From positions 15,314,001 through 15,378,000 of the forward strand of contig OZ024748.1 of assembly GCA_964016885.1 (NCBI GenBank): a stretch of 64,000 nucleotides of DNA, in the 5' to 3' direction. Both the position numbers and the translations under genes were made by a program. Numbering within the stretch: position 1 is the first letter of the stretch; every line of letters begins with the position of its first letter. Positions 9,138-61,847 of this stretch are shown here, piece by piece. This stretch comes from Eledone cirrhosa. Lineage: Eukaryota. Below the pieces are notes generated by a model. It saw nothing but the letters and a program-made list of their open reading frames with translations, had not been told where the DNA came from and did not search any database.

Positions 9138-9248
9138 TGTTTCTACTTTAGGCACAAGGCCAGCAATTACCCAGTTCATTACTGGTACTTTATTTTATCG
9201 ACCCCGTAAGGATGAAAGGCAAAGACAACCTCGGCGGGATTTGAACTC
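8857..9248 (-). mobile_element. Two tandem family A SINEs (full copy 8857-9088, 5'-truncated copy 9089-9248 with long (AAT)n tail)
   Basis: Both contain the core ggtactttatttt..gacccc/tgtaaggatgaaaggcaaag and the B-box. Confidence 0.85.
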
Positions 9249-9282
9249 ATAATAATGATAATAATAATGAAACAAAAAATAT

Positions 9283-9419
9283 TATAAATATATAAATATA
9301 TATATATATACATAAATATATATATACACATATATATATACACATATATACATATATATATATACACACATATATATATATATATATACACATATATATA
9401 TTTATATATACATATACAT

Positions 9420-9462
<43 letters not shown>

Positions 9463-9587
9463 AATATATATATACACATATATATATACATATACACATA
9501 TACACATATATATATACACATATATATATATACACATATATATATACATATATATACACACATATATATATATACATATATATACAC

Positions 9588-9620
<33 letters not shown>

Positions 9621-9703
9621 TATATATATACATATATATATACACATATATATATATACATATATATATATACACATATATATATACATATATATATATA
9701 CAC

Positions 9704-9734
<31 letters not shown>

Positions 9735-9903
9735 TATATACATATATATATATACACACATATATATATATATACATATATATACACATATATATATACA
9801 TATATATATATACACACATATATATATATATACATATATATACACATATATATATATATACATATATATACACATATATATATACATATATATATATACA
9901 CAC

Positions 9904-9934
<31 letters not shown>

Positions 9935-10497
9935 CACATATATATATACATATATATATATATACACATATATATATACATATATATATATATACACATA
10001 TATATATACATATATATATATACACACATATATATATACATATATATATATATACACATATATATATACATATATATATATATACACATATATATATACA
10101 TATATATATACACATATATATATACATATATATATATACACATATATATATACATATATATATATACACACATATATATATACATATACACACATATATA
10201 AAAATATATATATATATACATATACATATACATACATATATATATATACACATATATATATATATATATACACATATATATATATATATATACATATACA
10301 TACATATATATATATACACACATATATATATATATATATACATATACATACATATATATATATATACATATATATATACACATATATATATATATACATA
10401 TATATATATACACATATATATATATACATATATATATATACATATATATATATACATATATATATATACATATATATATATACATATATATATATAC

Positions 10498-10580
<83 letters not shown>

Positions 10581-11652
10581 CATATATATACATATATATA
10601 TACATATACATATATATATATATATACAAATATATATATGTATATAAATATACATATATATATGTATACATATACATATATATATATATATATACATATA
10701 TATACATATATATATACATATACATATATATATATACATATACATATATATATACATATATATATACATATACATATATACATATACAAACATATACATA
10801 TATATATATACATATATATACATATATATATACATATATAGATATATATATATACATATACATATATATACATATACATAGATATACATATACATATACA
10901 TTTATATATATACATATACATACCTATATATACATACATATACATATACATACATATATATACATACACATATACATACATATATATACATACATATACA
11001 TATATATATACATACATAAATATACATCTACATACATAAATATACATATACATATACATACATAAATATATATATACATACATATACATATATATATACA
11101 TATACATATATATACATACATAAATATACATACATACACATATATATATATATATATACATATATATATACATATACATATATATACATACATAAATATA
11201 CATACATACATATACATACATATACATATATATATATATATATATACATATATATACATATACATACATATACATATATATATATATATATACATATATA
11301 TACATATACATACATAAATATACATATACATACATATACGTATATATATACATATATATATTTATACATATATACATATATATACATATATATATATATA
11401 TATACATATATATATAAATACACATATATATAAATACATATATACATATATATATATACATATACATATATATAAATATATACATATATACATATATATA
11501 TACATATACATATATACATATATATATACATATATACATACATATATATATATACATATACATATATACATATATACATATACATATATATATATATACA
11601 TATGTATACATATGTATATACACATATACATATATATATATATATATATATT
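9283..11652. repeat. ~2.4-kb compound (TA)n/(TACA)n microsatellite
   Basis: Almost pure purine-pyrimidine alternation; produces all Y/I/M/C/V ORFs here. Confidence 0.98.
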
Positions 11653-11798
11653 CCTACTATTCAGCTATAATTTTTACCAGTTACGAATCATTAATTTATC
11701 ATAGTTTCTATTTTGTTGTTTTGTTTAATTTTATTTAGTATTTTTTCTTAGCTTTCAGTCGATATTAGGGCAGTAAAATATGCCAGACAGAACAACTA

Positions 11799-22256: not shown

Positions 22257-22293
<37 letters not shown>

Positions 22294-23872
22294 ATATCTA
22301 ATAAGAAAATGGAGAAATGTGAAGTAGAAATGAAAAGAAGGATTGAGATAGCTAGAAAGTTCTTTGAAAAATATCAAACATTAACATCAAGACACCTTAA
22401 TAGAGAAACCAAAAAGCGATTATTAAAATGTTATGTATGGTCTACTCTACTGGATGGAACTGTAACATGGACATTAACAGAAGTATTAACCAATAAATTA
22501 GAATCCTTTGAGATGTGGGCATATAGAAAACATTTGAGAATACCATGGACAAAACAGAAAATCAATGTAGAACGGCAATCAATGTAGAATGGCAAAAAAT
22601 ACAAATATTTTTATTAAACACCATCAAAGAGGCTACACTTAATTAGAAAAAATAATTTAAAGAGATTATTAATAGAAGGCAAATGAATGAGGAAAAAAGG
22701 AAGATGAAAACCAAGAATTATATGGATGGATAATATCAAGAATTAGACAGAATTAAAATACAGTGAATGTGTAAAGATATTATACAAAAGACTAAGAAGG
22801 TGATCCATAGCATTCAACAAACTGAGAGCAGACAATATTATAATGATAATGAATTCATAACAGCGATTTTATGGTCTTTCTTTAACATGAAAAAATATTT
22901 ACTGATTATATTTAATTTAGAAATTGTGAGCGTTCGTTTTGATCATAAAACTTTTTTATTACACAAGATTTATTATTCAAAACTTGGGTGAATGCTTCTG
23001 ATATCAAACTACCTAATTCTATGATAGTGCTAAGAAACTCTTGGGAGAGCTGGAGAGCAGAAGGTCGTCAGAGAAGAATCCTCCCCCTTCTCAAGTGAGT
23101 GTTTCAACCTTTAACTCTAAGGAAGCCAGACCACATCCAGGTCATGACTCCTGGGTCCCCTTCTACTGACATTTAGCCATTCGGAAATCAGCAACTTGCT
23201 ATGTATTTAAACTATATGGAGATTTTCTTGACAGGATCTAGCTAATTTAAAGTGTTCATATTTATACTTAAACCTTCTATTATAACTTTCTCTCAGCTAA
23301 AAAAGGAAAATGTTATTTTACTAAACCATTTCAATGTTTTATTATTTTTACAATTAATTAAAAACCACAGGCAGTGTATTTCATTAGAAATATGGTAACA
23401 AAAAGGGTTAATACACACTCTTAAAATAAGTAATTTCAAACAAATATTGACAAAATATTTATAATCTAACATTCAAATAGTAAAGTTTATATAACTTATA
23501 GATTTTCTCAAGATCATTAACTCAAATTGAAATGCTGGGTATGGCAACATAGAAAGAATTTATTTAGTTTTATATATTTTGCTTGAAACAAATTTGATTT
23601 TCCAGATTATTAAGAATTCCAGCAACTGATCTTTTAGGCAAGAAAATTTGCCATCTTATCAATAGATTAAACTAAAATGTCTGGTTCAAATAAGTCATTT
23701 CATGTTAGAGAAGCAACTCAATTTTCAATTTTGTAGATGCGTGGATTGGCTGCCAGTGGTTCCTGTCACAGACTAATTGCTTCTTGATTCAGGCATTTCA
23801 CACAATATATTGGAAATCATCCAACTCTAAAATGTGTCTGCTGTCCATGAACAACAACAATAATAATAATAT

Positions 23873-39090: not shown

Positions 39091-39424
39091 TAAAGTGTAT
39101 AACAACTCAAGAGATAGTCAGTGGAAATATAAATATACGAAAAAGAACTTCACAATTCACACCTATAGAGCCCCACTTCTATCAGGAAAAGCCATATGAA
39201 ATGAAGCATCTTGCTCAAGAACATAATACACAGCTTGATTCAGGAATCAAACCCATGACCTCATGATCAGGTGTCTAACGCCCTAACCTCAAGACCATAT
39301 GTTTTCATACACCAGACACACATGAGAGAGAGAGAGAGAGAGGGGAGACAGAGAGCTGTATGGATTCAAAAATATTCCTACCTGAAAATATGTCACACAT
39401 TGTATATATATATATATACAATGT

Positions 39425-39470
39425 GTGAAACAATTGTTCTCAGTATGGTGAACTAACTGTTGTGTTACCA

Positions 39471-39526
<56 letters not shown>

Positions 39527-39572
39527 TGGTAACACAACAGTTAGTTCACCATACCGAGAACAATTGTTTCAC
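39425..39572. repeat. ~148-bp palindrome: ~50-bp arms around a (TA)n spacer
   Basis: gtgaaacaattgttctcagtatggtgaactaactgttgtgttaccactta and its reverse complement with one mismatch. Confidence 0.95.
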
Positions 39573-39592
39573 CTTAGCGGATCCTCAGCTCG
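39555..39592 (-). ncRNA. Minimal type I hammerhead ribozyme motif
   Basis: Minus strand CGAG-CTGAGGA-T-CC(GCTAA)GG-T-GAAA-CAATTG-TT-CTCG: stem I, core, stem II, palindromic stem III, GUU triplet. Confidence 0.7.
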
Positions 39593-40717
39593 TAATGGTC
39601 ATGGTTATACGGAATTGGAAGAACAACCGTATATATATATAGATATATATATATACATATATATATATAATCTTAAGCAGTTTCAGCAATGCTAATATAA
39701 GCTATAAAGCATTATATCAGATGAAGTGAGAAAGTCACAGATGACCCATGACCACAGCAATAGGGTTCCATTCAGACAAGCAGAAGTGTGAGGCCAGTCA
39801 GTAGTAGTATTCTGACCTCAAAACTGTGTTACATTCACAGCCAAGATATTGAACTCACATCAGCTCAATCCACTAAGTAGGTAACACAGGGTTAAATAAT
39901 TCACCAGTACAAGCTACAAAAGCGGCAACAGCAGAATCAGCACAATAACATTGACAAGTGTTTAACAATATACGATTTATAGTCTCCTTTAGACTTGGGC
40001 AACATACAATAATCTTTTTCTTTTCTTTTTTCATGATACAAAAATGTCATAATTTTTGCATTTTCCTATTTGGCTTGTTTTTAATTTAATTTTTACCCTA
40101 AAATTATCTTTTCATTCCTATTGTATATCTTAATGGCATAGAGAATAGCAAGGTCTGATAGATATTCTTATAATGTCAGCTTTACAGATCTTATCACACA
40201 CATTTATTCTACAGATCTTCATCTCTTTTCTCACAATTTTTGGATATTTTCCTCTTGAATGTCATTCAATATATCACTTCTGACCTATGTATTATTTCCC
40301 CCAACCCCACTCACATTCCTTTTTTTTTTTTGCATGAAAAAAATATAATGCTTTCCTTAAAAATTAATGTAATGTTGACCAGATTCTCTCCTCTTTCCAT
40401 TCTCACTATTCCACCACCAATAACAACAATACTACCACCACTACAACTATCACCACTATTACCATCACTATCACACATGCCTTGTGGCCCCCCCCCCCTC
40501 TGTATTAAAATTGTGATGGCCTAGTGCCAGCAAAGACTTAACTGAGATGCAATTTTCATTGATTTGAGAATGGCGACTACATTTTGTAAAAACCCACTTG
40601 CAGAATAAATTGCATAGTTATCAATAAAGTCAAATAAAATTCTAATAGAAACAGTCAAATACAAAATACCCTGTAGGAAGCCATAAAAACGATTTTATAT
40701 ATTTTCTCTATAGAATA

Positions 40718-48570: not shown

Positions 48571-48580
48571 ATTATAGAAA

Positions 48581-48631
48581 AGCTTCAACAGGACTAGAAC
48601 TGTTTCATTCTTGCGAAATCATCAGGAAGCT
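48581..48631 (-). ncRNA. Type I hammerhead ribozyme motif (antisense twin)
   Basis: AGCTTC-CTGATGA-T-TTC(GCAA)GAA-T-GAAA-CAG(TTCTAGTC)CTG-TT-GAAGCT. Confidence 0.75.
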
Positions 48632-48678
48632 TCCTGATGATTTCGCATGAATGAAACAGTTCTAGTCCTGTAGAAGCT
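48628..48678 (+). ncRNA. Type I hammerhead ribozyme motif
   Basis: AGCTTC-CTGATGA-T-TTC(GCAT)GAA-T-GAAA-CAG(TTCTAGTC)CTG-TA-GAAGCT; three helices and full core; predicted cleavage after GUA at 48672. Confidence 0.8.
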
Positions 48679-48759
48679 CTTCTATATTAAACATTTATAC
48701 TTTGCATTGTATTGAGTACCTTACATACTGTGGTTACCTCCGATTGAACCCGGATTAAC

Positions 48760-48791
<32 letters not shown>

Positions 48792-54681: not shown

Positions 54682-54857
54682 TATATATATATAAATCAGG
54701 ATAAATTCAATTTGAAACAGGTAAGACCATTACGCAAGAGAGTACTCAATTGAACGGCTAGTTCAACTTGAACAGCTAGTTCCATTCTGAGTCTAGAACT
54801 AGCCGTTGAAATGGAAGAACTCAGTATATATATATATATATACGTAATAGTAATATA

Positions 54858-55562
54858 CGTAATAGTAATATACGTGAACGACAAAGCATAAACGAACTAA
54901 GGAAAAAATTAGAAATAAGAGGGATCAGATGTTGTTTACTAGAGAGAAGGCTACGTTGGTATGGTCACGTGATGCGCATGAAGGACGATAGCTGTATAAC
55001 AAAGTGCAGGGCAATAAAGATAGACGGTAGCCACGGAATAGGCAGACCCAGAAAAACCTGGGACGAGTTGATAAACTCCGACCTCACACACTTACACCTC
55101 ACCAAGACAATGTCACTGGACCGAGACCTTTGGCGGTACTCAGTAATAGAGAAGACCCGCCTTACCTAAATACAAAGTAAAACCTACTACAGTCAGTAGG
55201 CATCTCTAACAAAATACACCCCGTCCACCACCCCCACCCCATCCACACCGCCCCCTTCTATGTAAAGTTATGTTGGTGCCACACCATCCAGGCCGAAACA
55301 AATGAGATCGTGTAGGTGTCACGACAAAAAAACACACAGTCCACGCTGTAATGTGGCCGTGTAGGCAACACGGTAAAAACCTCCCAGACCCACACTGTAA
55401 ATGTGGTTGGTGTTAGGAAGGGCATCCAACTGTAGAAAACCTGCCAGACAGTCCTATGCGAGCAAGACAATCACTCTTGCCTCAAGTGGGAAAACCCCCG
55501 TCCAAACCCATGCAAGCGTGGAACACGGACGTTAAACGATGATGATGATGATGATGATGATA
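54858..55562 (+). mobile_element. Relatively young 5'-truncated RTE LINE (ORF C-terminus, 3' UTR, (GAT)n tail)
   Basis: Uninterrupted RERQSINELRKKLEIRGIRCCLLERRLRWYGHVMRMKDD...GRPRKTWDELI...DRDLWRYSVIEKTRLT* ending at 55169. Confidence 0.92.
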
Positions 55563-56349: not shown

Positions 56350-56495
56350 GATAATATCTCCATAATATTACATCGAGATTGACCATACAGAATGACCAGT
56401 TCTATCCAGTGGTGAACTAACAAACCTAAATAGATAGATAGATATAGATATATACACATACCAGCATATACACATGCAAACACATATACTTGCAA

Positions 56496-59450: not shown

Positions 59451-60273
59451 GCAAAAATAAAGTGGCATTGTATAATATGTACTGTTCTGCGAAAAGAAAG
59501 AAAAAAGAGAGATGAGAAAAAACTAAAGCACAAACTTTTTGAAAAGTGAATAACAAGAAAAAGACCAATCTTTGAACTGCTACTTTAGATCACATAAAAC
59601 AACGACAACAAAAATCAATAAACCTGTTATGTATTGTGCTAGATACCATAGAGTTAGTCTTTTTTTTCTCTTTTTTGTGATGTCTTCAACTTGGTTGATG
59701 TCTTTAAGCTGTCCATACAAACTATTCAAAGAAATCCACATCAGAAAAATAGAAAATTGCTGATATAATAATGACAATATTTAGATAAGTTTACTGCCAC
59801 CATCATCACCCTCCTGCCAAAAGACAACAAAAACTAAAGAGCTCTACAGACAATAATTCTTCAAACTTGAGTTTTATCTAATACCTATATTATACCAATA
59901 CATGACATCCCACAAGGGAAATCAAAATACATAAGCTTACATGGTTAGATTTAAAATAATGCGTTCCCCTGTGACAAGATATTCCATGTTTTCAACACAA
60001 AATTGGATAAAAATAGAAATAAAAATAGAAATAAAAATTAAATAATTCATAAAACAAAATTCCAAGAAAATTGCCCTGTAATTTTATTGGTTGATTTTTT
60101 ACTTTTTTACTGAAATTAGTACATCAAAGGGTGTTACCATTGGACAATAAATTGGTAAGCATCAGTCTCTACTGACTAAAATTATGAAGTAGGATGATGG
60201 TTTGCTACACTGATACAGAGATAAGCTTGTCTATTATCTCTAAGCTAAGATTTCACATTGTGAGGCAGAATTT

Positions 60274-61490
<1,217 letters not shown>

Positions 61491-61847
61491 TAAATGTGTG
61501 AAGTAAATGCGTGGGTGAAAGTATGTGTGATGTATGACAAGTTGTTAAAAAGTGAAATTTCACACACATTCATATATACACATACATACACACTCACTGG
61601 TATGTGTGTATAATGTACACACATATGAAAAAGAAGAGAAAAAAAACACTAATGATAATAGATAACCATCCCAAAATAAATTTGTATACTTTCACATCTT
61701 TGCTAGACTGAGTTTGTTTACTGATAAAACCAAAGATATATTAACTCTGCCTCTGCCGCTGTTGACTGACTCAGTTGTAAATGTATTTAACACTTACATA
61801 GAAGAAACTACATCCCTTGTGGCAGCAACATTACTACTCAACAATTC

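Follow-up and report, generated by a model that had tools for sequence, protein, structure and literature searches.

A candidate hammerhead ribozyme lies on the minus strand of this DNA within two nested palindromes, each built around TA repeats. The locus raises the question of what kind of element the ribozyme belongs to, and of how the element's 3' end and the adjacent flank came to be mirrored side by side. The window (the whole 64-kb stretch of DNA that was analysed) is AT-rich, with 13-41% GC in 2-kb bins, and is dense in TA microsatellites, of which 232 tracts were counted. A first-pass annotation had read the locus as a minimal hammerhead from an independent family, derived from Penelope-like elements (PLEs), that occupies TA tracts, cleaves as a dimer and has its symmetry axis on the side of the ribozyme opposite to that of another hammerhead element in the window, at 48573-48760.

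The reading that we favour, with moderate confidence, is that the locus holds a copy, truncated at its 5' end, of a very abundant repeat (likely a Penelope-type element or a non-autonomous derivative) with a type I hammerhead motif close to its 3' end, that this copy lies in a TA tract, and that the nested palindromes are likely the product of one fold-back repair event. The locus is mostly ordinary transposon debris; the motif and its family are real, and both are of a known kind.

A type I hammerhead motif

The minus-strand string on which the first-pass annotation was built is present as written. The features of the motif, with residues in hammerhead numbering, are as follows.

39559-39588, minus strand: type I hammerhead core that matches the descriptor, with CUGAGGA, helix II, GAAA, helix III and a GUU triplet
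39592-39589, minus strand: 5' strand of helix I
39588-39582, minus strand: C3 to A9
39581 and 39571, minus strand: U10.1 and U11.1
39570-39568, minus strand: G12 to A14
39567, 39560 and 39559, minus strand: A15.1, U16.1 and H17
Between 39559 and 39558, minus strand: predicted cut site, 34 nt from the 3' end of the element
39548-39599, minus strand: helix I in the predicted fold, with 4 bp (39592-39589 with 39558-39555), a 2x2 internal loop and 5 bp (39599-39595 with 39552-39548)

The order CUGANGA ... GAAA ... NUH, with an A15.1-U16.1 pair, is found at 39588-39559, and the motif has the three helices and open helix I of the type I class (4+5 bp in helix I, a U·U and 2 bp in helix II, and 2 bp in helix III). 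The five pairs of helix I beyond the internal loop had been overlooked, as had the composition of helix II, which consists of U10.1·U11.1, two Watson-Crick pairs and a 5-nt loop. Helix III was correctly described as palindromic: it is the perfect 8-nt palindrome ACAATTGT, and its monomer form comprises 2 bp and a 4-nt palindromic loop.

The type I descriptor calls for the core, a helix II of at least 2 bp (first pair free), helix III, NUH, and a helix I of at least 4 bp. It matches the window three times, at 39588-39559 and in both arms of the 48573 element, and the background is a mean of 0.04 matches per 64 kb in 200 windows simulated with a Markov-3 model, none of which (0/200) contains a perfect short palindromic helix III. 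Rfam searches with the whole window and with 39525-39630 gave no hammerhead among the matches listed. The folding energy of the isolated motif is no better than that of shuffled sequences (z of -0.79 and 0.12), and its monomer minimum free energy (MFE) structure differs from the active fold. Because Rfam is blind to this motif and its fold resembles that of shuffles, the case for a ribozyme rests on the descriptor match and the family data, not on folding energy. Judged from its sequence, 39588-39559 is a real hammerhead motif, with predicted self-cleavage.

Several other candidates were set aside. A core-like site at 63062-63039 was dropped, as it lacks helix III and helix I. Rfam matches to miRNAs are noise from TA hairpins and score far below the gathering thresholds. 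An exact search of metagenome and viral contigs for a 22-nt motif gave no matches, and a degenerate core motif gave five matches in metagenome contigs of 52-64% GC, without helix III or helix I, which were attributed to chance.

A high-copy repeat family

Read evidence came from four of six public runs (X1, X2, X4 and X5), placed on 39100-40000 at 80% likeness. X1 and X2 are contigs, and X4 and X5 are RAD libraries from other samples. Contig depth and loose ends delimit the copy at this locus.

39525-39630, minus strand: 5'-truncated repeat copy of 106 nt, with its 3' end adjoining (TA)26
39630-39669, unstranded: imperfect (TA)20 at the 5' truncation point, with TA common to the continuation of the family

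Summed contig depth is 5-7 × 10^5 at 39534-39595, compared with 3-15 in the unique flanks, and the two ribozyme bins have depths of 681,000 and 496,000 in X1. The bin at 39348-39378, beside the left flank arm of the palindromes, has single-copy depth. RAD depth at the ribozyme is ~6,000 reads in each of X4 and X5. The ribozyme belongs to a very high-copy family that is also present in two other individuals. Summed contig depth is not a copy number, and short contigs may over-count; with up to 31-fold over-counting allowed, we infer roughly 2,000 to 70,000 copies. Loose ends indicate that the family extends past 39630, where the copy at the locus turns to TA after two shared letters, so this copy is 5'-truncated with TA microhomology.

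The variation listed among the copies fits a hammerhead under selection. A variant at 39584 (N7, a free core position) accounts for 19% of X1 depth, one at 39593 that adds a fifth helix I pair for 9%, and one in the palindrome and loop III at 39564 for 3.6% in X1. A subfamily (771+351 loose-end reads in X4) has a loop II that is 1 nt longer and six contiguous helix I pairs, and family variants lengthen helix I to 5-6 contiguous pairs. Among the 40 variants listed of 94, all sit at N7, the edge of helix I, loop II or loop III, and none at the invariant core positions, which suggests that the core is conserved among copies. In X4, 1,750 of 2,388 RAD molecules end at 39565, at the AATT inside helix III. 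These ends look like a restriction cut, so the centre of the palindrome is intact in most molecules and RAD allele counts are biased there.

Other copies of the family appear to be joined in inverted orientation. Of the 12 contig joints listed from a total of 20, four read as head-to-head, with strand inferred: 39569, 39576 and 39586 to 39425 in X2, and 39563 to 39434 in X1. In one of these, 18 intervening letters read as the sense-strand core and helix II. The four appear to be an antisense copy followed by a sense copy, like the 48573 element. Separately, an X1 contig joint from 39596 to 39555 may represent a ~44-nt ribozyme tandem elsewhere, a candidate natural dimer.

The first-pass annotation had proposed looking for tandem copies and PLE reading frames. 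The 64 kb contain one core of the family and no other same-strand core nearby. None of the 143 window ORFs (at least 58 aa, not low-complexity) matches Pfam, and neither does any of a smaller set of eight, as expected beside a 106-nt 3' fragment. The view that this family is distinct from that of the 48573 element is upheld, in that the 3' parts of the two align no better than 551 of 5000 shuffles.

Other elements in the window

The element at 48573-48760 is a head-to-head twin hammerhead between TA tracts, with three differences between its arms in the compared stretch. Each helix III comprises 4 bp with a loop of 8 nt, GUA and GUU serve as the triplets, and a U·U opens helix II as at 39588-39559. 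Beyond the right arm, but not the left, lies an extra stretch of ~75 nt. In both families, ACT is the last sequence before (TA)n.

A region of ~80 nt between microsatellites at 56350-56430 (plus strand) shares a 12-nt exact match with the 3' part of the 39525-39630 element (blast E of 0.56) and has the same outer helix I pairing. It is without a catalytic core, and is possibly a decayed relative or a chance resemblance. At 54690-54830, ~140 nt between TA tracts include a 10-nt match to the 5' helix I strand of the ribozyme, along with short inverted repeats.

The remaining observations concern unrelated repeats. The sequence at 39162-39290 is a high-copy repeat with a summed depth of 21,500 in X1, which we take to resemble an octopus tRNA-derived SINE. 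Short ORFs at 22291-22587 and 54810-55169 (plus strand) lack a Pfam match and are presumably C-terminal remnants of RTE-type LINE proteins. Degenerate TA/CA microsatellite arrays of kilobase length occupy 9150-11700 and 60240-61600.

Penelope-like or retrozyme membership

PLEs are described as having (TA)n targets, heavy 5' truncation, hammerheads near their 3' ends and inverted copies (PMC8557442). The element at 39525-39630 sits in TA tracts, as had been claimed, and it bears out the Penelope-type traits that had been invoked: its hammerhead is near the 3' end, where PLEs carry one in the pLTR, it is 5'-truncated at a (TA)n target, and the copies of its family are dispersed. A head-to-head inverted copy is absent at 39393-39630 and is represented elsewhere by the four joints described above. 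From TA target, truncation, 3'-end hammerhead and inverted copies, membership in the PLEs is probable. In Octopus vulgaris, 31 recently active Penelope-like families are listed (PMC13282606).

A retrozyme-derived monomer is an alternative to PLE membership. Head-to-tail units of a few hundred base pairs, each with a hammerhead, are lacking at the locus, where only TA arrays surround the element. Dispersed retrozyme monomers have been described in a 2026 preprint (bioRxiv 10.64898/2026.07.22.740005), which also argues that retrozymes are non-autonomous PLE derivatives.

The nested palindromes

The palindromes consist of the following parts.

39393-39402, unstranded: a, the left flank arm and template of the small mirror, likely pre-existing host sequence
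39403-39418, unstranded: (TA)8, the axis of the small palindrome
39419-39428, unstranded: a', the 10 nt of left flank that adjoin the TA tract, copied in inverted orientation
39425-39428, unstranded: GTGA, a 4-nt microhomology common to the ends of both mirrored arms
39425-39472, plus strand: b', the final 48 nt of the element in inverted form, with GAAA, helix III, the cut site and the 3' end, and without CUGANGA
39473-39524, unstranded: (TA)26, the axis of the large palindrome
39525-39572: b, the right arm of the large palindrome, within the element

On the plus strand, the order is thus a, (TA)8, a', b', (TA)26, b, the rest of the element and (TA)20. The mirror across (TA)n that had been reported at 39425-39572 is present, with b' and b identical at 47 of 48 positions around (TA)26; the mismatch is at 39442/39555, and at 39442 it is a CpG-type G>A change. 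The small hairpin previously placed at 39395-39427 also exists and spans 39393-39428, where a' is the exact reverse complement of a, giving perfect 10-bp arms around (TA)8. The overlap of the two palindromes by 4 nt (39425-39428) had been overlooked. The junction between the mirrored arms contains no untemplated base, and deleting a', b' and one TA tract restores a simple insertion of the form flank-(TA)-element-(TA).

Among the 232 TA tracts, only these two adjacent ones have non-microsatellite mirrored flanks of at least 10 nt. The probability by chance is ~6 × 10^-4 for six unique mirrored bases and 7 × 10^-3 for the microhomology. No contig piece among those listed spans the palindrome, and TA tracts were skipped in read placement. 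RAD joints from 39418 to 39403 (4-5 reads) and from 39437 to 39559 (10-13 reads) were discounted because they involve few unique letters at 80% likeness.

Origin of the palindromes

Under the favoured reading, the copy would have arisen by target-primed reverse transcription. Because it spans the cut site, the template RNA would have been uncut or re-ligated. A break would have occurred in the TA tract that separates the left flank from the 3' end of the element, made either by the endonuclease of the element, at the time of insertion or later, or through cleavage of a cruciform. Both TA ends, being self-complementary, would then have looped onto themselves and been extended along the adjacent flank (by 10 nt at the left end and by 48 nt at the right), and the new strands would have annealed to each other at GTGA/TCAC. 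The copying enzyme could be host polymerase theta or the reverse transcriptase of the element. The other 230 TA tracts lack such arms, so the presence of two mirrored arms side by side points to one event, and the arm pattern is likely what snap-back at both TA ends followed by 4-nt annealing would leave.

In synthesis-dependent microhomology-mediated end joining (SD-MMEJ), snap-back at TA/AT precedes microhomology annealing, and TA/AT events are reported among the most frequent in the assay used (PMC5728401). For long AT repeats, cleavage of the cruciform is predicted to yield two ends that are each capped by a hairpin (PMC12972899). A purified PLE protein is reported to cut and extend both strands of AT-rich DNA and to use unprocessed RNA (PMC11167929).

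A plausible minority explanation is that two members of the same family inserted into one TA tract in opposite orientations. The shorter of them (48 nt) would have gained its 5' junction when the reverse transcriptase jumped and, starting from the TCAC microhomology, copied 6-10 nt of the flank. Given thousands of family copies or more, with a 3' end that is well conserved, the 47/48 identity of the arms does not call for local copying. Moreover, no private variant is listed for the right arm at 39534-39572; with the conservation of the 3' end, this makes two separate insertions possible, and it leaves copying of the left arm from the right unproven against them. PLEs are also said to tend to insert into or beside existing copies (PMC6765202). 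However, this explanation needs a second strike on one tract, when the family is found at one locus among 232 TA tracts, as well as a templated junction, whereas a fold-back yields both arms in a single step.

A more speculative and still less likely reading is that the locus is a fossil of a predicted and rarely seen Penelope self-priming, in which TA repeats serve both as target and as fold-back primer, and the reverse transcriptase of the element turns at (TA)n ends to copy adjacent element or host sequence. If so, the family would seed tail-to-tail hairpins that silence its own ribozyme and that supply long double-stranded RNA for editing or small-RNA silencing.

Self-priming before integration is improbable. 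A sense RNA or first cDNA ending in (UA)n or (TA)n would have folded back and primed its own reverse transcription, and the tail-to-tail hairpin would then have integrated; self-priming of a sense template is a published route to a tail-to-tail repeat (Arkhipova et al., PMC3846280). By itself, however, it leaves the second, flank-derived hairpin unexplained, and the short arm begins 13 nt upstream of the predicted cut site rather than at the cut site. In addition, the other joined family copies read as head-to-head.

It is quite improbable that assembly or amplification errors at the TA tract produced the mirrored arms and that only one truncated copy is real. Assemblies are known to have difficulty with such inverted structures of PLEs (PMC8557442), and no read or contig among those listed spans the structure. 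Nevertheless, the arms differ by the CpG-type transition at 39442, the junction is base-exact with its 4-nt microhomology, and the unique flanks show no differences from X1 and X2 contigs.

The tail-side mirror is very improbable as the architecture that defines a second family, in the form of a hairpin or MITE-like unit, and the earlier claim that an opposite-side symmetry axis is a family property fails with it. Left-arm bins do carry a depth of 1-2 × 10^4, but this is ~3% of that of the right arm, a level to be expected when ordinary copies are assigned to the opposite arm. Depth in the small-hairpin bin is 366, compared with 681,000 in the ribozyme bin. Since the ribozyme extends across the boundary of the arm, the arm is no terminal repeat, and contigs of other copies read as joined head-to-head.

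Predicted cleavage and masking

Dimer-type hammerheads have a short helix III with palindromic positions 15.2-16.2 and loop 3, and the 8-nt palindrome at the locus has this form. In silico, the active dimer has a free energy of -30.8 kcal/mol compared with -19.6 kcal/mol for two active monomers, in line with the earlier suggestion of a dimer form, and the two-molecule MFE structure (-35.6 kcal/mol) contains the intermolecular 8-bp helix III and both helices I. In the family, the ribozyme would cleave best as a dimer through its 8-bp palindromic helix III. This prediction is made by likeness to tested motifs of the same build (PMC7229834, PMC4209133; reviewed in PMC6765202).

The copy at 39525-39630 is predicted to be in a different situation. 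The mirror arm, which lacks CUGANGA, is antisense to the ribozyme within the same transcript, and in the predicted fold it pairs with the 3' half of the ribozyme in a 74-bp hairpin. The pairing probability of helix I falls from ~0.3 before the mirror arm to 0.00 when the transcript contains the whole palindrome. On read-through, the RNA would adopt this hairpin, which would mask helix III, the cut site and helix I, so the model predicts that the copy is inactive when transcribed through the mirror arm.

Significance

Small PLE hammerhead variants that cleave as dimers were reportedly described by Lunse et al. in 2017 and may include this motif type. No octopus hammerhead family and no nested double fold-back at a PLE end was found in the main texts consulted, and published figures or supplements may hold the motif. 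PLE-type hammerheads, the occurrence of several such families in one animal genome, cleavage as dimers by way of a palindromic helix III, a U·U at the foot of helix II, TA targeting and inverted copies are all already in print, and the family is therefore a new example that adds no new principle.

The double fold-back scar is the sole unusual item; it occurs at a single locus and is likely a one-off. How PLE inverted structures form is described as an open question in the literature (PMC8557442, PMC3846280). The locus is of value for its base-exact double fold-back junction, and the thousands of copies of the family allow head-to-head, tail-to-tail and flank fold-back junctions to be counted.

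Comparison with known systems

The closest structural description to the motif is that of the axolotl HHR_Amex2 (PMC7229834). Compared by description, both are type I, have a helix III of 2 bp closed by a tetraloop, and begin helix II with a U·U. For the published motif, cleavage of the monomer is reported to be weak (22% in 1 h) and that of the dimer to be better (Cervera and de la Pena 2020, PMC7229834). Natural hammerheads with U10.1·U11.1 and with 2-bp stems II have been described (Perreault et al. 2011, PMC3088659).

The label "minimal" given in the first-pass annotation does not suit the motif. In the description by Cervera and De la Pena (2014, PMC4209133), min-HHRs have no helix III or loop 3, a helix II of 6-8 bp, a conserved G10.1-C11.1 and one unpaired base after A9. 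In contrast, the motif at 39588-39559 is canonical in type with a short helix III (2 bp and a 4-nt loop), and its helix II consists of a U·U and 2 bp, without the G10.1-C11.1 pair or the bulge after A9. With the PLE hammerheads of Drosophila, rotifer, shrimp and mosquito described in the same paper, it shares the type I form, a palindromic helix III, dispersed and mostly truncated copies, and several families per genome.

The hammerheads of metazoan non-LTR retrozymes, as described in PMC7229834, occur in tandem repeats of 330-350 bp and in circular RNA, whereas the copy at 39525-39630 is monomeric, truncated and dispersed, lies between TA tracts and has its 3' end mirrored. Endonuclease-bearing (EN+) PLEs with a (TA)n target, among them Neptune (Craig et al. 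2021, PMC8557442; Arkhipova et al. 2013, PMC3846280), are described with the same TA target, 5' truncation, 3'-end hammerhead, inverted partial copies and palindromic junctions. They are usually inverted head-to-head through the 5' end, like the 48573 element, whereas the locus is tail-to-tail and nested with a flank-derived hairpin.

The arm pattern shares with snap-back SD-MMEJ, as described in PMC5728401, an inverted TA/AT primer repeat, short synthesis, a new microhomology and a longer inverted repeat that is left behind. It differs from that system in that, at 39393-39572, both ends apparently snapped back, and one of them copied 48 nt.
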